Below are positions 3,161 through 35,393 of a stretch of 40,724 bases of DNA, one piece after another. Numbering within the stretch: position 1 is the stretch's first letter; every line of letters begins with the position of its first letter. The DNA lies in IMG/VR virus record IMGVR_UViG_2565956726_000012, positions 1 to 40,724 of that record; one strand, given 5' to 3'. Below the pieces are notes generated by a model. The model was not told the DNA's origin, did no database searches, and was given only the letters and a program-made list of their open reading frames with translations. The position numbers and the translations under genes are program-made. This stretch comes from a virus. Lineage: Duplodnaviria > Heunggongvirae > Uroviricota > Caudoviricetes.

Positions 3161-5623
3161 TCAATTCCCTGTTAATTGCAAAACTTGCTCTTCCAGCTTT
3201 TTAACCCTGCGTCTCATCATCGCAGATTCCAGAATCAGAGCCTCTTCATAACGGATACCGTAACATTCACCAGCCTCGACGGCTTCGCGTACCAGAACCT
3301 TTGTCTGTATAAGTGGGTAAACTCCTGCAGAATGCTCTTCTTCCGTCACATCCCTGTATTCTGCCGGGGCCTCATTCCACTTGTCATAACAGATAAATGC
3401 CAGTCGTGACACATCTATGCCTTCATTCTGAAATACACTGATAACATGCTGCGCAACTGCACCAAAGTGCCATCTTGCTCCGTCTTTACCTTTCACTTCG
3501 ATCCTGTCAAGGTACTGGTATGAAACCCATTCCACTCTTTCCCATGCGTCCAGTATTTTCTCATCAATAACCTCTGGAGCAGTCTTGAAACGCGCATCGG
3601 ACAGCACCGTAAACGCTGACTGGGTAAATCCCCCCGACCATGCACGACCAGCCAACCCAAGAGAATAAGTATTCGTTGTCGATGGTGTCATGGCTGAATC
3701 AGAAAACTGTATATATTCTGAATTTCCAGTAGATATTCGAATATTTCCATTTATTAGCGACATAGTGCCTTTAGTATTATCACTATTGAATAATTTCAAT
3801 TGCGAACTTATACCGCCTCCCACAGCCAGAGATACATCGCCTTCAGCAAGCATTCTGAATTTATCTGCAGAAACAAGCGTCTGGTTAGCAAGGTTAAAAT
3901 ATTTAACCCACCATTCAAAACGCCCTGACATAGTCCCAACGTACTGACCAAGCGCAGGGACGTGAACAACATTGCTATTTGTAGTGCCGTCTATACTGGA
4001 AATACCAGTCACCGCTGATGCAGAACTCAGAATATTATTTCTGTCACCCGGATGTTTAATTTCAACAAAGTTCCTGATACACCCTTCCTCGAAGGTAACC
4101 ACGCCGGAAGAACTATACATGGGGAATATTGACGCATAATTACTGCGTGCAGCATCTAAGAAACGAATGGTTGTAGATGTCTGCAGATCTCCTGATTCAT
4201 TTTTCCCATCACACCCAGTCATTAGAATATTACTGGCAATATTATTATTTCCCTGAACGGTGACGCCGTGCGCCTGCTTTGCGTCCGATTCAGAGTAATC
4301 AACCAGCACATCCGAAATCAGGTTACCAGTCCCCTTGCCAACAACTACTGCGGCGTATTTTGGGTTGTTAGCCATTACACTGCTAATGATATTATTCGTT
4401 GGGGCAGTTTCCGTCTCAGTTCCATTGTAAACAACGTGCTGACACTCTTCACCAATAACATTGCTGACAATGTTATATTTTGCTGCTGTTTTAAGTTCCA
4501 CTGCACCAAACTGAGGATAATTTCTGGCTATCACACCATCAATTAGCGTATTTTGCGATGAATCAAAAAGCACACAACCTGCTTTTTTATTATTTGCGAA
4601 CCCTAAATACTCTCCTCTTATATCTCTAACAATGTAACCTGACGGAATACCATTATCCGGATAAGCGATCAAGCTAAATCCTGGTCCTCGCGTATTTGTA
4701 AATCTGATATTTTTAACCGATACATCATGGCCACCTGAAAATGACACCTGGTGTCCCTGCACACTATCATCTGATTTATTTCCCATAATTGTTAGCGTAC
4801 TAAGCATGCCACCATCGGGCATGTTAAAAACCAGATGATTACCATCTCTGTCATACTGTTTTATCGTTCCCCCACCTGTTCCGTACAAGCCACAACGTGA
4901 AAGAGAAACTAAAGATGTATTGAATACCCCTTCCGGAACAAAAACACTGCTAAACGAATGTAATGATTTTGTAAAAGCATCCTTGTTATCATTTAAGATT
5001 CCATTTTGAGCTCCAAAATCCTTAATGCTGACACCATCACGCATCTTATCCTGGAACGTTCTGTATACCGCTCCAGAACCATACTGAATAAACCAACCAA
5101 AACCACCAATAACTCCGGCGATTGCAGCATCGACATAATTACGCATTGAGCGATTATTTACAGCGTCCTGCTCAAGTGATGGATCGGCAAGGTTAGATAT
5201 TCTGTTTTGCTTTGCATCGTAATATTTTGCAAGCAAAGATGGTTTCATCAATGCACGTCTGAACCACCCAAAACATCGCTGGATCAGCATCGTCAGGTAG
5301 TCAAATGCATCCTCATGAACTTCGGGGAAAAATTTTCCCTGATTGCGAAGATCAGTCTCCTGCACCACATCAAGCACACGCTCTATCGTGATTCGCCAGC
5401 CAGCAGCAAGCGGCGACGGAAGAACCACTGCACCGCCACTATAAGTTCCCGCCCCTGTTACCGTATAACCAGCATCCAGCACTAGTTTTGTAACGTTACC
5501 GTTAAGGTCAGACACCTGAACAACCAGGTCGGATTTTTTGAAAATACGGAAGGTATACGGAAATGATGTCGTAACGCCGTTACCTGTGTATTCGTTGTGG
5601 TCAACTTCGGTTGAGACCGTCAT
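3161..5623 (-). CDS. Tailspike/tail fiber with T7 gp17-like N-terminal adaptor domain, central beta-helix-type region and C-terminal intramolecular chaperone (peptidase S74) domain
   Basis: N-terminus NEYTGNGVTTSFPYTFRIFKKSDLVVQV resembles T7-type fiber N-termini; C-terminal SDARFK motif followed by a coiled-coil tail typical of self-cleaving chaperone domains; GGAG RBS. Confidence 0.8.
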   Translation of the reverse strand: MTVSTEVDHNEYTGNGVTTSFPYTFRIFKKSDLVVQVSDLNGNVTKLVLDAGYTVTGAGTYSGGAVVLPSPLAAGWRITIERVLDVVQETDLRNQGKFFPEVHEDAFDYLTMLIQRCFGWFRRALMKPSLLAKYYDAKQNRISNLADPSLEQDAVNNRSMRNYVDAAIAGVIGGFGWFIQYGSGAVYRTFQDKMRDGVSIKDFGAQNGILNDNKDAFTKSLHSFSSVFVPEGVFNTSLVSLSRCGLYGTGGGTIKQYDRDGNHLVFNMPDGGMLSTLTIMGNKSDDSVQGHQVSFSGGHDVSVKNIRFTNTRGPGFSLIAYPDNGIPSGYIVRDIRGEYLGFANNKKAGCVLFDSSQNTLIDGVIARNYPQFGAVELKTAAKYNIVSNVIGEECQHVVYNGTETETAPTNNIISSVMANNPKYAAVVVGKGTGNLISDVLVDYSESDAKQAHGVTVQGNNNIASNILMTGCDGKNESGDLQTSTTIRFLDAARSNYASIFPMYSSSGVVTFEEGCIRNFVEIKHPGDRNNILSSASAVTGISSIDGTTNSNVVHVPALGQYVGTMSGRFEWWVKYFNLANQTLVSADKFRMLAEGDVSLAVGGGISSQLKLFNSDNTKGTMSLINGNIRISTGNSEYIQFSDSAMTPSTTNTYSLGLAGRAWSGGFTQSAFTVLSDARFKTAPEVIDEKILDAWERVEWVSYQYLDRIEVKGKDGARWHFGAVAQHVISVFQNEGIDVSRLAFICYDKWNEAPAEYRDVTEEEHSAGVYPLIQTKVLVREAVEAGECYGIRYEEALILESAMMRRRVKKLEEQVLQLTGN

Positions 5624-5727: not shown

Positions 5728-5742
5728 TTACCTTTCAGGTAA
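5728..5742. promoter_or_regulatory. Operator copy A (TTACCTTTCAGGTAA) of the ATTACC-N5-GGTAAT family
   Basis: Perfect 17-bp palindrome ATTACCTTTCAGGTAAT; lies between minus-strand TTGAAA -35-like hexamer and the tailspike gene, and upstream of the plus-strand island. Confidence 0.6.
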
Positions 5743-5799: not shown

Positions 5800-5819
5800 A
5801 TTGCATGGAGAAGATTAAG

Positions 5820-6077
5820 ATGCAGCAGTATCACTATCCACTGGAAGAGGGATTTACCGAAAGGATTCACACGCCGGGAGGCGTCAGGTCACTGGTGGAG
5901 GGATCGCACTTGATGAAATTACTCCGGGATCTCGATAAGGATGGATTTAATGTCGATGGCCCACTTGCCGAACTGACTGCACTGATTAACTACGTCACCA
6001 GCTCACAGATGTCTATGCAGGATCTGCAAACACATCTCGACTATTGTGCCGAACAATTACGAAAACAAACCAGATAA
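5820..6077 (+). CDS. Small standalone antirepressor C-terminal (ANT/KilAC-like) domain protein; candidate SOS-inducible antirepressor
   Basis: 85 aa; clearly alignable to the C-terminus of the downstream Bro-N antirepressor (GVRSLVEGSHLMKLLRDLDKDGFNVDG..AELT vs GVLGLTENSLLMNLLNQLQDDGHDVSG..AELT); GGAG RBS before ATG 5820; LexA box upstream. Confidence 0.55.
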   Translation: MQQYHYPLEEGFTERIHTPGGVRSLVEGSHLMKLLRDLDKDGFNVDGPLAELTALINYVTSSQMSMQDLQTHLDYCAEQLRKQTR

Positions 6078-6080
6078 GGT

Positions 6081-6123
6081 TTGCAATTACCAAGTGAAGT
6101 GCTTATATTTACCTTTGCGGTAA
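6081..6123 (+). promoter_or_regulatory. Sigma70-like promoter (TTGCAA-17-TATATT) with operator copy B (TTACCTTTGCGGTAA) abutting the -10
   Basis: Near-consensus -35/-10 with 17-bp spacer; operator starts at last base of -10. Confidence 0.6.
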
Positions 6124-6236
6124 ATTTACATCGCACTCCTCTTGTGCCATAGTAATCGGGCACTGGCAAAATCCAGTGCCGGGATTGGCGTCCCGAGTTA
6201 CTAAGTGGCGCATACCACGCCAGACGTGGTTTTTTT
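6116..6236 (+). ncRNA. Putative structured small RNA or leader element (c4/sar-like antirepressor control RNA) ending in an intrinsic terminator
   Basis: No ORF; hairpins GGCACTGG/CCAGTGCC (6159-6180) and CGGGA/TCCCG (6180-6195); terminator at 6214-6236; lies between a strong promoter and the ant gene. Confidence 0.35.
6214..6236 (+). terminator. Rho-independent terminator upstream of ant
   Basis: Stem ACCACG/CGTGGT, loop CCAGA, followed by 7 T. Confidence 0.65.
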
Positions 6237-6392
6237 ATGCGTTAAGCACAGCTATATCCGAATTATGGTGGGCTGGGCAGGGGTCCGAAAGGACGCCGGT
6301 ACCACTTAGGCCGGTACGCCAACCTTGTCCAGTTCACCACCAGTAATTGGCGTTGCGGTGGTGATTAAAATCACTAAGTGGAGATAACCACC

Positions 6393-7103
6393 ATGGCTAA
6401 TGCTCAAACTGCCATCTTCAAATTTGAATCTGTTAACCCTATCCGTTCCATCATTATCGATGGCCAACCATGGTTTGTAGCCCAAGACGTTTGTAGTGCG
6501 CTGCGCATCCAAAACGTCACCCAAGCACTTGAAAAACTGGATGATGATGAAAGGTCTATGTTCAACATAGGGCATGAATATCGTGCAATTTTTGACAGCC
6601 GAGTAAAAGAGATCAACATCATCTCCGAGTCAGGCCTCTACACACTGATCCTCCGCTGCCGCGACGCAGTGACACCGGGCACTATCCCCTACCGCTTTCG
6701 TAAATGGGTTACAGGTGAGGTTCTTCCTCAGATCCGCCGCACCGGAAGTTACATTAAAAACTCGCTCCCGCAGGAAGAACGCATAAAGATGGTTGCCGAC
6801 CAGGTTGCAAACGCCACAGCATCAGCAGTGATGCAGGCAATGAAGATAGAGAACAAAACCTACAGCGCCCCGCTGAAGCCCGGCTACCGCAGCCTGATTC
6901 ATTCTCCGTCTGGTGTTCTCGGCCTGACGGAGAACTCATTGCTGATGAATCTGCTGAATCAGTTGCAGGACGACGGGCATGATGTATCGGGCGCGGCGGC
7001 GGAGCTGACCACCATGTTTTGCTACATCGTTGGTGTGAGCAAATGCCTGCGTGATATCCAGACGCACGCGGAGTACATCAACGACAAGGCAGGGTTCTTC
7101 TGA
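6393..7103 (+). CDS. ant: Antirepressor, Bro-N N-terminal domain plus ANT-like C-terminal domain
   Basis: Bro-N-like N-terminus (FKFESVNPIRSIIIDGQPWFVAQDVCSALRI); GGAG RBS 9 nt before ATG 6393; the GTG at 6378 in the track is an unlikely start. Confidence 0.8.
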   Translation: MANAQTAIFKFESVNPIRSIIIDGQPWFVAQDVCSALRIQNVTQALEKLDDDERSMFNIGHEYRAIFDSRVKEINIISESGLYTLILRCRDAVTPGTIPYRFRKWVTGEVLPQIRRTGSYIKNSLPQEERIKMVADQVANATASAVMQAMKIENKTYSAPLKPGYRSLIHSPSGVLGLTENSLLMNLLNQLQDDGHDVSGAAAELTTMFCYIVGVSKCLRDIQTHAEYINDKAGFF

Positions 7104-7148
7104 CAGAACGGCGGCACAGGGATGTGCCTTTAAATAATTCTGTACAGA

Positions 7149-7191
7149 TTGCAGACCGGGGGTGAATAGCGTACTATTACCTCAAGGGTAA
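7149..7191 (+). promoter_or_regulatory. Sigma70-like promoter (TTGCAG-17-TACTAT) with operator copy I (TTACCTCAAGGGTAA)
   Basis: Same -10-abutting operator architecture as copy B. Confidence 0.55.
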
Positions 7192-7251
7192 ACGGATTGG
7201 TTTCATTTTTATTAATCCGTGTAATGAACTTATGAGATATGAGGTAATGTC

Positions 7252-7431
7252 ATGCGAAACGAAAAATTGCAGATGCGTAGAGCGCAAGCTGCCGCAAGAC
7301 GTTCTTTCAATGGAAGCGTAGAGTACGTAAAAGTTACTATGGCAAAAGATCACGCAAGTCGCGTATCCCGCGCTTTCTTTGATTCTCGTAACAATAAGGA
7401 AAATTATGAGTTCGTCTGCGTCGCAGAATGA
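7252..7431 (+). CDS. Small basic protein (59 aa), candidate antitoxin-like partner
   Basis: GAGGTAA RBS 5 nt before ATG 7252; Arg/Lys-rich; 3-prime end overlaps start of next gene by 26 nt; below the 60-aa cut-off of the ORF track. Confidence 0.35.
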   Translation: MRNEKLQMRRAQAAARRSFNGSVEYVKVTMAKDHASRVSRAFFDSRNNKENYEFVCVAE

Positions 7432-7951
7432 TAAAAATCAAATTGTCAGATATAAGGGTCGAGTATTGCATACGCAAAATTTCTCGGCCCTTTGTGCATC
7501 TGATCTTGAGCTGAAGAAAGTATCTGATGCCTTTGCCCAGTATTGGAAAACGGGATACCATCCATCTCTTGGTAAAGATGCTGCATTTGCTCGTCCGACA
7601 GAAATGCTTAAACTAAATGTCAGGCATGCTCATGTCGATAACCAAGACTATATTCCAGAAGATAGTGATAAAAAACACACTGGTAAAAAATCATCTTGGG
7701 ATGCATGGAAAAATATAGCGTCTGTACAAGTAAAATGCATACCAACAAGTGATTGCTTTTTAGTTTATTCGGTAAATCACAATCGTGATGCGCTGGTTAT
7801 GTTTTTTGTTGACGCAGATGCCCACAACATAACTGAGCAAGAAGAGTTTAAAGAGGCAGCAATCACTATCAGTTATCAATTCTTTGAGAAAACAAAAACA
7901 GAACCAATGCCTTTAGAAGAAGATCTTTTTTCTGATAAATGGAAGGAATAA
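7406..7951 (+). CDS. Hypothetical protein with possible YafO-like toxin N-terminal region plus acidic C-terminal extension
   Basis: AAGGAAA RBS before ATG 7406; segment GKDAAFARPTEMLKLNVRHAHVD recalls a YafO-family motif from memory only; AT-rich codon usage; own promoter and terminator. Confidence 0.45.
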   Translation: MSSSASQNDKNQIVRYKGRVLHTQNFSALCASDLELKKVSDAFAQYWKTGYHPSLGKDAAFARPTEMLKLNVRHAHVDNQDYIPEDSDKKHTGKKSSWDAWKNIASVQVKCIPTSDCFLVYSVNHNRDALVMFFVDADAHNITEQEEFKEAAITISYQFFEKTKTEPMPLEEDLFSDKWKE

Positions 7952-7973
7952 GCCCGCGTTGCGGGCTTTTTTT
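7952..7973 (+). terminator. Rho-independent terminator
   Basis: Stem GCCCGC/GCGGGC followed by 7 T immediately after stop at 7951. Confidence 0.7.
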
Positions 7974-8045
7974 ATGGACGAAACAAAAGTCAGTGCTACA
8001 CTCATTGACGCCACATTGAGGTGGCTTATAGATGGAAATTTCACA

Positions 8046-8207
8046 ATGAAAAAAGCATTTGCTGCACTGTTCGTTTTGTTGTCTCTGGTAGCTTCAACTC
8101 AGGCCTTTGCCGGTCGTTGTCAACACGACAGCGATACTGCCGCTGACGGCTCCCGCTGCGGTGGGCGTTCTGCGGATTCCCGCCCGGGCGGCGGTGGCAT
8201 TCGTTAA
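8046..8207 (+). CDS. Small secreted Gly/Arg-rich protein (53 aa), hypothetical
   Basis: Signal peptide MKKAFAALFVLLSLVASTQAFA; GGAAA 7 nt upstream; the longer track ORF from 7959 would start inside the upstream terminator and is rejected. Confidence 0.4.
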   Translation: MKKAFAALFVLLSLVASTQAFAGRCQHDSDTAADGSRCGGRSADSRPGGGGIR

Positions 8208-8229
8208 AAACAAGGCCGCGAAAGCGGCC
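8204..8229 (-). terminator. Rho-independent terminator for the minus-strand structural operon
   Basis: Stem GGCCGC/GCGGCC with GAAA loop; on minus strand followed by TTGTTTTT. Confidence 0.6.
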
Positions 8230-8243
8230 TGTGACATGTCACA
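8230..8243. repeat. Perfect 14-bp palindrome TGTGACATGTCACA (copy 1 of the GTGACATGTCAC family)
   Basis: Exact self-complementary sequence; same 12-bp core recurs at 25642-25653 and 27907-27918. Confidence 0.8.
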
Positions 8244-8804
8244 CTACATTGATATATGATTCATAAAGTAGCTTAAAGATTTACTTCCCAGAAAAGAAAT
8301 TTCTTTTCCTGGATATGTCGCAATAATTGAGCATGACTTATCCCCGTTAGAGGTAACAAATCCTGAATAACCTACTTGTTCTTTACCATTTTGTTGCTTG
8401 GCTAAAAAGTAGAGGTAGCTTATCTTTTTGCCCTCTGGGTAAAACTCTGCCAAACCAGTATCGGTGATTGAATATTTTATTCTCCCGCCTTGAGTAACGT
8501 TTTCCATCTCAAGTTTAGCTATGTCTTTTCTGTTGTATTCAGCATTGATTTTCCTTTTGAAATCAATGTTGTTTTCAAATGAGTAGGAAGCAACAGTCTG
8601 AATAGATGGGAACACGTTTATCTGGATGCCTCCACAGTCGGCACAGGTATAAAGGTATGAATCAGATGGAATCCCCATAAAAGAAAACTGAGTTACCTTA
8701 AATTTATCGCTATCTCCAAAGTATTGAAGTTCGCATTTAACATTTTTCCCTGCAAAAGAAAATGCAGACATCAATATTGAAACAAAAAATATAATTGCCT
8801 TCAT
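8244..8804 (-). CDS. AT-rich secreted protein (cargo gene), possible superinfection-exclusion or conversion function
   Basis: Signal peptide MKAIIFFVSILMSAFSFAG; markedly lower GC than neighbours; sits after the ejection-protein genes and before the tailspike. Confidence 0.6.
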   Translation of the reverse strand: MKAIIFFVSILMSAFSFAGKNVKCELQYFGDSDKFKVTQFSFMGIPSDSYLYTCADCGGIQINVFPSIQTVASYSFENNIDFKRKINAEYNRKDIAKLEMENVTQGGRIKYSITDTGLAEFYPEGKKISYLYFLAKQQNGKEQVGYSGFVTSNGDKSCSIIATYPGKEISFLGSKSLSYFMNHISM

Positions 8805-24604: not shown

Positions 24605-24641
24605 CGTAGAAGGTTGACATTTAACGCGTGAATTATTACCT
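24605..24641. promoter_or_regulatory. TTGACA -35-like element plus operator copy C (TTACCTTTCAGGTAA)
   Basis: Identical 15-bp core to copy A; lies between portal-side operon and the tRNA island. Confidence 0.5.
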
Positions 24642-24972
24642 TTCAGGTAACTAAAGAGCTCATTCTGGTTACTAACCTGACTGGCTTGTCGTTAAATTAA
24701 ACAGGTGGAGTGAGCTTTTATTTTGAGCAGTACGGCGTATGGCACATGCGCCGATAGCGGTCTGGATACGTTTAAGGGGCACCCTCCCTTGCTCGGGCAA
24801 ACGAACCAGGTAGCCGGAATGTGCAAGTCGAGCGGTTTTATTCCGCGCACGGGGATTCACCATCCCGGCGATTCGGTGTGACGCCTCGGAAGAGACGAGG
24901 GTACAACGATGAGAGCATTTATGGAGCCGCGACAAAGTGTGGCGCCTTAACAGGCTAAGTGCTCTCAGCGTT

Positions 24973-25049
24973 GTGGCATTAGCTCAGTCGGACAGAGCAA
25001 CCGCCTTCTAAGCGGTTGGTCGCAGGTTCGAATCCTGCATGCCACGCCA
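24973..25049 (+). tRNA. tRNA-Arg (anticodon UCU), phage-borne
   Basis: 77 nt cloverleaf: 7-bp acceptor stem GTGGCAT/ATGCCAC, D-arm GCTC..GAGC, anticodon loop CTTCTAA, T-arm GCAGG-TTCGAAT-CCTGC, discriminator G plus CCA; closely resembles argU-type tRNA. Confidence 0.9.
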
Positions 25050-34808: not shown

Positions 34809-35393
34809 ATGAAAAGTATCCAGGACGTCCGCAGGCAAAATCTCAACGACTTGATCGACCGTGAATTCAATGGTGTTCAGACGCGGATGGCAGAAAAACT
34901 TGGAACTCAGGCAAATCTGGTAAACCGCTGGGCTCTTGGCAAGAAGGTTATCGGCGACCAGGTTGCGCGAAAAATTGAAGCTGCCGCCAATAAACCCCGT
35001 AACTGGCTTGATATCGATCGCTCGCTTTCTCAGGAAGGTTTTCAGCCTGTCGGCCCAAGCGACATTGGTCAGCTGGCGGCTCACAACCTGGAACGCTGGA
35101 TGAGCGAAAGCCGCGACCTTTCAACGCAGGGAAAACTTCACCGCGCATCCGGCGTCGCCCAGGTGACAATCAGCCGCCTGTTAAACAATGAGGTCAGCGT
35201 TTCCATTTCCACCCTGGAGAATGTTGCATCCGCATTCGGGCGTCACGGATATGAACTACTGATTCACCCGCACGACCCTGCGACTATCAACTATGACCGC
35301 TCACGCTACGCATTGTTACCCGAAACCGAGAAAGCAAAGATCGAAAGTTACATTGAATTTGTCATCAACCAGAACGAAAAAAGCAAACAATAA
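34809..35393 (+). CDS. Prophage repressor with two tandem XRE-type HTH domains, no S24 peptidase domain
   Basis: Two HTH motifs (QTRMAEKLGTQANLVNRWALGKK and QGKLHRASGVAQVTISRLLNNE); no Ala-Gly/Ser-Lys autocleavage module; divergent from cro-like gene. Confidence 0.75.
   Translation: MKSIQDVRRQNLNDLIDREFNGVQTRMAEKLGTQANLVNRWALGKKVIGDQVARKIEAAANKPRNWLDIDRSLSQEGFQPVGPSDIGQLAAHNLERWMSESRDLSTQGKLHRASGVAQVTISRLLNNEVSVSISTLENVASAFGRHGYELLIHPHDPATINYDRSRYALLPETEKAKIESYIEFVINQNEKSKQ

Follow-up and report, generated by a model that had tools for sequence, protein, structure and literature searches.

What does the two-gene unit beside the tailspike gene of a phiV10-like prophage encode, and what controls its expression? 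The unit occupies positions 7149-7973 of a viral DNA stretch of 40,724 nucleotides (nt) (IMG/VR record IMGVR_UViG_2565956726_000012, positions 1 to 40,724), the whole of which we call the window and which is a near-complete phiV10/epsilon15-like podovirus genome of the genus Uetakevirus. An initial annotation of this unit had proposed a toxin-antitoxin or abortive-infection-like pair, consisting of an open reading frame (ORF) for a small basic protein of 59 amino acids (aa) and an overlapping ORF for a protein of 181 aa, with a promoter and a terminator of its own. The reading that we favour, with moderate confidence, is that the unit is a bicistronic cassette of a YafO-type toxin and a small partner protein, carried as exchangeable cargo in the tailspike-side variable region of a Uetakevirus prophage with phiV10 immunity. 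The evidence comes from the family relationships of the two proteins, the recurrence of the pair in other genomic settings, and an operator-like palindrome at the promoter of the cassette that is found throughout the phage genome.

By sequence comparison and structure prediction the larger protein is a YafO-family protein with a RelE fold and additional C-terminal sequence. The resemblance to YafO that had initially been proposed held up. A hidden Markov model search with the 181-aa protein placed PF13957 (YafO_toxin) on residues 46-148 with 25.7 bits against a gathering threshold of 25 (E 1.2e-5). Because the score of this single sequence is marginal, the link to YafO was tested further at the level of the family. 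A profile built from 24 close homologues and searched against 1.84 billion proteins returned 70 cluster representatives, which form an unbroken range from proteins of 165-200 aa down to canonical proteins of 130-150 aa. PF13957 was matched by 38 of 59 relatives (best E 5.4e-29), and hhalign aligned the family profile with YafO of Escherichia coli K-12 (taken from NC_000913) over YafO residues 2-130, with a probability of 97.9% and an E-value of 5e-13. The family assignment is already in RefSeq, where the 98%-identical protein gp44 of phage TL-2011b is named "type II toxin-antitoxin system YafO family toxin", and the Prokaryotic Genome Annotation Pipeline (PGAP) gives the same label in E. coli chromosomes. 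In PHROGs the protein belongs to phrog_1651, whose function is given as unknown. NCBIfam gave no match for the toxin, and a sequence search of the PDB matched no solved chain.

A RelE/BECR fold is predicted for the 181-aa protein. The alignment of 59 sequences yielded a usable AlphaFold2 model, and the alignment of the 24 close homologues gave a predicted local distance difference test score (pLDDT) of 54; Foldseek found no significant match for the toxin model in the PDB or BFVD. In the 59-sequence alignment G56 and H76 are invariant, and F43, D58, P64, S115, Y121, and H140 are at least 90% conserved. All of the family-invariant or near-invariant residues are kept in the window protein, including the G in FG[KR]D, the D, the H of an H-x-H strand, the Y of LVY, and a C-terminal H. 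To our knowledge, experiments have yet to define the catalytic residues of YafO. Compared with YafO, the protein has two extra parts, an insertion of approximately 36 residues after the H-x-H strand (approximately residues 78-113) and a conserved tail of approximately 20 residues (162-181, PMPLEEDLFSDKW), both of which are modelled with high confidence and packed on the core. The initial annotation had pointed out an acidic C-terminal extension; the protein has an isoelectric point (pI) of 5.98 and, over its final 20 residues, a net charge of -2.2. The toxin gene is under strong purifying selection (omega 0.04-0.12), tail and insertion included. The long-YafO subfamily has not been described before as a recognisable group.

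YafO is a translation- or ribosome-dependent mRNA interferase that is neutralised by YafN (PMC2814082, PMC7781912, PMC11980606), and it has been reported to bind the 50S subunit (PMC7781912). How far it depends on the ribosome is a matter of ongoing debate (PMC11980606).

The small ORF that precedes the toxin gene is a real gene. Its 59-aa product matches phrog_6685 with an E-value of 1.9e-44, and profile searches gathered 13 and then 36 homologous clusters, all named hypothetical, with distant homologues in other genera. In the part that lies outside the toxin gene the ratio of nonsynonymous to synonymous divergence (dN/dS) is 0.16-0.35, and the length is fixed at 59-60 aa over a range of 52-98% identity. 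The protein is basic, with lysine or arginine at 12 of its 59 residues and a pI of 10.0. Its C-terminal core of approximately 35 residues reads VKVTM.K.HA..VSRAFFDSRN.K.NYEFV in the window and, for example, KMSVE.A..LSKKMF...ELYDDAE elsewhere. This core is common to the entire family, and the N-termini in front of it range from approximately 20 to approximately 100 residues. The conserved C-terminal core with a variable N-terminus thus gives the family the usual modular layout of antitoxins. Searches of Pfam, NCBIfam, and PADLOC returned no match to the partner, and no antitoxin in the PDB matched it. From sequence, we regard the small protein as the likely antitoxin and its family as undescribed and distinct from YafN. 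The single PDB match of the partner profile, to the N-terminal part of Pseudomonas ribosomal protein uL22 (E 0.01, best-domain E 0.42), was treated as due to chance; other uL22 sequences were not matched by this profile.

The pair recurs in more than ten different genomic contexts, in each of which a small or mid-sized ORF with the common C-terminal core is found directly upstream of a long YafO gene. An upstream ORF on the same strand overlaps or abuts the long YafO gene in prophages of Serratia, Arsenophonus, and Providencia, and the same arrangement is present in a moron of a siphovirus tail module, at a chromosomal site beside a restriction-modification gene, on marine and other metagenome contigs, on plasmids of Acinetobacter and Klebsiella, and in phage EC.W1-9. 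The two genes overlap by 8-53 nt at some of these loci and are 2-4 nt apart at others, and approximately 93 nt separate them on an Acinetobacter plasmid. Throughout the homologous loci the partner is directly upstream of the toxin gene. The unit has the order of genes and the close coupling expected of a type II toxin-antitoxin operon, and the two-gene arrangement recurs in unrelated contexts; the partner matched no antitoxin family.

A different arrangement was observed in Providencia-type prophages (L065:2082-2910, L066/L067), in which two to four small ORFs are arrayed in tandem before the toxin gene. Some of these are paralogues of the partner core that end in NHEFVL or YDGYELEE, and one carries a regulator-like N-terminus (KTIRxTDEHKQLLEKGSRILA) that is either fused to the partner core or separate. 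Pfam did not confirm these extra ORFs as ribbon-helix-helix proteins, giving only weak matches to DUF7386 (E 0.04-0.07).

The anatomy of the unit is summarised in Table 1. Most of what had been described initially was found as described: the Arg/Lys-rich 59-aa ORF and the 181-aa ORF share 26 nt at the end of the former and the start of the latter, the small ORF has a strong and conserved ribosome-binding site, the unit is AT-rich (39.5% GC for 7149-7973 compared with 49.6% for the window), and the terminator is clean, with an 8-bp GC-rich stem (7950-7968) followed by seven T residues (-14.8 kcal/mol, z -2.9). The AAGG of the toxin Shine-Dalgarno sequence is invariant in nine diverged loci.

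Table 1. Positions, in the window, of the features of the cassette and of the phage repressor gene.
Feature	Position	Strand	Details
Hairpin GGCACA-GGGA-TGTGCC followed by TTT	7113-7131	+	-10.1 kcal/mol, z -2.6
Sigma-70-type promoter	7149-7177	+	-35 TTGCAG (7149-7154), 17-nt spacer, -10 TACTAT (7172-7177)
Operator-like palindrome TTACC-N5-GGTAA, TTACCTCAAGGGTAA	7177-7191	.	overlaps the -10 and the expected start
Shine-Dalgarno sequence of small ORF, GAGGT	7241-7245	+	6 nt before ATG; TGAGGTG/A in relatives
Small basic partner ORF	7252-7431	+	59 aa, phrog_6685; conserved core VKVTM.KEHA..VSRAFYDSRN.K.NYEFV
Shine-Dalgarno sequence of toxin gene, AAGGA	7396-7400	+	5 nt before ATG, within partner ORF
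Toxin ORF	7406-7951	+	181 aa, YafO family (PF13957)
Intrinsic terminator AAGCCCGC-GTT-GCGGGCTT and T run	7950-7975	+	fold and scan
Helix-turn-helix (HTH) repressor gene	34809-35393		Pfam HTH_3

Among relatives whose identity falls to 65-85% further downstream, the junction between the two genes (7372-7491) is 95-98% identical. For the same pairs of loci, synonymous divergence (dS) is 0.25-0.8 in the partner ORF and several-fold higher, 0.7-2.8, in the toxin gene. The core of the junction is conserved because the YEFVC end of the partner and the MSSSASQ start of the toxin are encoded by the same nucleotides; however, this dual coding accounts only for the 26-nt overlap and not for the rest of the conserved junction. 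No conserved RNA structure was found in the junction (-5.6 kcal/mol, no covarying pairs), and Rfam identified no known RNA inside 7100-8000. On the left side of the unit, the stem of the hairpin at 7113-7131 shows a paired change in relatives (GGCACA/TGTGCC compared with GGCGCA/CGCGCC). This hairpin probably terminates the upstream Bro-N antirepressor gene and would thus mark the left boundary of the unit.

The promoter of the cassette is preserved as TTGC.. and TA(A/C)TAT separated by 17-18 nt in nine diverged relatives, even though their spacers differ in sequence, and the promoter of the antirepressor (ant) operon at 6081-6109 has the same geometry. The palindrome begins on the final base of the -10 hexamer and is conserved upstream of the cassette in all of the Uetakevirus-type loci. 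Within the window there are 10 exact copies of TTACC-N5-GGTAA, and 15 copies if up to one mismatch is allowed; shuffled sequences averaged 0.68 copies and never exceeded 4. Two copies (34691 and 34739) lie in the interval that separates the repressor gene from the divergent Cro-like gene, and two others (35451 and 35513) follow the repressor gene closely, at a TTGACA promoter. Copies are also found within the early region (32346 and 32408), ahead of the terminase region (27796 and 27814), upstream of a tRNA gene (24636), and at two other plus-strand cargo promoters (5728 and 6109), of which the copy at 6109 has exactly the -10/operator geometry of that at 7177.

Given this enrichment and the copies that flank the repressor gene, the palindrome is most simply interpreted, from sequence, as the operator of the main repressor of the phage. 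The repressor encoded in the window shares 99.5% identity with the repressors of phiV10, phiv142-3, and vB_EcoP_ZX5, and 43% with that of epsilon15. The vB_EcoP_ZX5 repressor and its Bro-N antirepressor have been verified by overexpression (PMC9782041). In its extended form, (A)TTACC-N5-GGTAA(T), the element is a 15-bp palindrome that is dispersed over the phage genome, overlaps the -10/+1 region of several promoters, and flanks the repressor gene. The dispersed set resembles a regulon of the P1 kind, in which operators for the phiV10-type repressor would be scattered over the genome. The operator-gated promoter of the initial annotation is thus upheld in that a palindrome is present at the promoter, but it is not private to the unit, since it belongs to a phage-wide set of ten exact copies.

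Nor is the unit autonomous in its control. Phage phiv142-3 shares positions 7109-7196, which contain the terminator, promoter, and operator, and then carries two unrelated small genes with no match to the cassette; it also keeps the same three operator slots. Outside the Uetakeviruses, relatives of the cassette have no upstream palindrome and are preceded by other promoters. The promoter and operator therefore belong to the phage backbone, and the mobile cassette proper corresponds to approximately 7197-7975, inserted in a repressor-controlled slot. The cassette is probably tied in this way to the switch between lysis and lysogeny.

Two other elements were noted in the leader. An inverted repeat at 7189-7198 and 7214-7223 was considered as a second operator and rejected, as it is a lineage-specific insertion that is not found in relatives. 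In addition, positions 7176-7184 (ATTACCTCA), which include the left half-site of the operator, are perfectly complementary to positions 7240-7248 (TGAGGTAAT), which span the partner Shine-Dalgarno sequence. A transcript reading through from ant could fold such that this Shine-Dalgarno sequence is hidden (-18.5 kcal/mol, z -2.05), and a transcript from the cassette's own promoter probably does not contain the upstream pairing arm.

We propose the following working of the cassette. A sigma-70 promoter whose -10/+1 region lies under the dispersed phage operator would be kept at low expression by the repressor in the lysogen and freed upon infection or induction, and the hairpin and T run at 7950-7975 would stop the transcript. 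As the toxin gene begins within the partner ORF, 26 nt from its end, the partner would be translated first and the toxin probably by coupled translation. The 181-aa RelE-fold homologue of YafO would then cut mRNA and stop translation, and the 59-aa basic protein would bind it directly with the conserved C-terminal core and so neutralise it. Pfam and profile searches of the partner revealed no recognisable DNA-binding domain; the phage repressor would therefore supply transcriptional control in trans. The phage-wide operator is the sole conserved palindrome at the cassette promoter. Candidate roles for the cassette are abortive infection or exclusion, shut-off of the host in the lytic cycle, and prophage addiction.

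Several points weigh against this proposal. Toxicity, neutralisation, and physical interaction of the two proteins are inferred, as is binding of the repressor to the palindrome, which we deduce from its position. The Pfam score of the single toxin sequence barely exceeds the threshold, the hhalign probability for the partner profile and E. coli YafN is 0.8% with no antitoxin family matched, and the charges are the reverse of the usual pattern, with a basic partner and an acidic toxin. The promoter agrees with the consensus at only 7 of 12 positions and was not called by the promoter scan. The proposed role as a defence cargo found no backing, in that neither protein matched any defence model in PADLOC-DB v2 (E up to 1), and tight shut-off of the promoter by the repressor would make a defence role in the lysogen less plausible. 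Operator gating suits a role in the early or induction phase at least as well as a defence that is expressed in the lysogen.

In an alternative reading the cassette is an early-lytic tool of the phage and not a defence or addiction pair expressed in the lysogen; its YafO-type nuclease would degrade host or competitor mRNA upon derepression, and the small protein would set timing or dose. The operator at the cassette promoter is the same as that at the early promoters flanking the repressor gene and upstream of the ant operon, and the slot adjoins the isrK/C4/ant switch region. Moreover, the gating appears selective, because the secreted-peptide gene that follows at 8046-8207 has no palindrome upstream. 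We nevertheless consider this alternative unlikely. Relatives of the cassette reside on plasmids and at the chromosomal site beside a restriction-modification gene, under other promoters, and such non-phage sites are better explained by a self-contained toxin-antitoxin module than by a phage takeover function; a general mRNA interferase would also harm the phage's own translation. It is quite improbable, in our view, that the cassette is a repressor-gated early-lytic weapon in which the long YafO-type mRNase serves host shut-off or competitor exclusion and the partner does more than sequester the toxin. Such a partner might time or target the toxin, perhaps by imitating a ribosomal docking site, and the sole hint of such mimicry is the weak match to uL22 described above (E 0.01).

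The partner might alternatively not be an antitoxin at all. The toxin would then be held in cis by its acidic-aromatic tail, or would not be toxic, and the basic protein would have another role, such as nucleic-acid binding or regulation. The tail and the insertion are indeed specific to the subfamily, maintained by purifying selection, and confidently packed on the core of the model, the basic partner matches no antitoxin family, and some relatives have two to four small upstream ORFs of which one is regulator-like. However, the core of the upstream ORF is conserved alongside the toxin in very different contexts while its N-terminus is free to vary, which indicates a protein-protein partnership with the toxin, and the overlap of start and stop is maintained among loci. 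In addition, both genes are present at all 45 Uetakevirus-type loci, intact together at 44, with the toxin alone broken at one and the partner alone broken at none, a survey that carries little weight since the copies are mostly near-identical. We judge this alternative as a whole improbable. If the locus had a YafO-like gene alone, with the small ORF as a fortuitous reading frame in its leader, this would agree with the ORF's lack of annotation by PGAP in the listed E. coli genomes and with the lack of a family match outside PHROGs, but this idea has been effectively refuted by the selection on the ORF, its fixed length, its conserved Shine-Dalgarno sequence, the strength of the phrog_6685 match, and the homologues in other genera, and we assign it almost no probability.

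The cassette is situated in a variable cargo region that extends from the tailspike gene (3161-5623, minus strand) to the genes for large internal proteins (8807 onward, minus strand), with the Bro-N antirepressor gene (6378-7103) directly upstream. At least 80% of the unit was matched in 61 of 5,426 complete E. coli genomes. Some part of it was matched in 176 of these genomes; those listed as partial matches reach no further than the first 41-48 nt. Forty-three IMG/VR contigs carry the cassette. Among 50,697 phage records it is present only in TL-2011b, apart from a 31%-identical relative in EC.W1-9, and a scan of genome contigs with an alignment-based profile gave no confirmed locus.

The neighbourhood contains several other elements. 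Between the operator-gated promoter at 6081-6109 and the Bro-N gene, Rfam identified an isrK Hfq-binding RNA (6160-6236, plus strand, 67 bits) and a C4 antisense RNA (6261-6344, plus strand, 66 bits), and this isrK/C4/ant region resembles immI, a c4/ant switch of the kind seen in P1/P7 and Gifsy-1. Further upstream, a plus-strand ORF of 90 aa (5805-6077, phrog_450) is a homologue of the C-terminal portion of the adjacent antirepressor, of which residues 158-239 match the same PHROG; the ORF is preceded by a region of its own with an operator copy at 5728. An 83-aa equivalent of this gene adjoins the tailspike gene in Providencia and Arsenophonus prophages. The plus-strand gene at 8046-8207, which follows the cassette, encodes a signal-peptide protein of 53 aa that is labelled "putative transmembrane anchored protein" in TL-2011b. 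A promoter-like pair (TTGACG/TATAGA) was seen upstream of it by eye and was not called by the scan. It is separated by a two-way terminator (8213-8230) from a convergent gene (8244-8804, minus strand) for a signal-peptide protein of 186 aa (phrog_11983). The tRNA gene mentioned above (24973-25046, plus strand, Rfam 73 bits) is approximately 340 nt downstream of an operator-bearing TTGACA promoter at approximately 24610-24650. In a prophage of Arsenophonus nasoniae (L050:4085-4681), a gene with an OspG-type kinase domain is found beside a long-YafO cassette and a Bro-N gene; OspG-type kinases are a family of type III effector kinases.

YafO is among the least understood toxins of the RelE superfamily, and the long subfamily, with its small and usually unannotated partner, opens a second and independent way to study the neutralisation of YafO toxins. 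PGAP labels the YafO-family toxin in the listed E. coli genomes and gives the 59-aa upstream ORF no feature, and pipelines that search for toxin-antitoxin pairs will therefore report orphan toxins. Besides the long-YafO subfamily, the non-YafN partner family that PGAP leaves out and the link to a phage-wide operator are new here. As a repressor operator is combined here with a slot in which cargo is exchanged, the coupling of a toxin module to the lysis-lysogeny switch can be put to the test. Should the toxin prove not to be toxic, or the partner give no rescue, the locus would merely be an annotated YafO-like hypothetical gene.

The closest known counterpart of the toxin is that of the yafN-yafO pair of E. 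coli K-12. The homology extends over nearly all of YafO, a RelE/BECR fold is predicted, and the antitoxin-first order and tight coupling of the genes are shared. In contrast, the toxin has 181 aa compared with 132 in YafO, and the partner is unrelated to YafN or Phd/YefM. The two pairs also differ in their control and location, as yafN-yafO is part of the LexA-controlled dinB operon and the window pair occupies a prophage cargo slot under a phage repressor operator. The toxin is only 8-9% identical to HigB2 of Vibrio cholerae and HigB1 of Mycobacterium tuberculosis (PDB 5mje and 7nbu), for which Foldseek gave no significant match, and higBA loci, which have the toxin first and an HTH antitoxin, are unlike the window pair.

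Similar in organisation is the paaR2-paaA2-parE2 system of E. coli O157 prophages, which combines a toxin of the RelE/ParE superfamily with an antitoxin of approximately 60 aa that lacks a DNA-binding domain and with a separate transcriptional regulator. The window pair is likewise prophage-borne, with a very small candidate antitoxin and a regulator that would be separate. However, the ParE family targets gyrase, the PaaA2 antitoxin is unrelated to the window partner, and the regulator of the window pair would be the main phage repressor rather than a dedicated gene; a dedicated regulator-like ORF is seen only in the Providencia-type relatives. In phage P1, operators of the C1 repressor are scattered over the genome, including the c4/ant operon, and phd-doc regulates itself and stabilises the plasmid prophage. 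The window phage resembles P1 in having scattered operators for what would be a single repressor, here with C4 and isrK upstream of ant and ten dispersed operators, together with a candidate toxin-antitoxin cargo. The operator sequence and the repressor family differ between the two phages, and the window phage, unlike P1 with its plasmid prophage, integrates.

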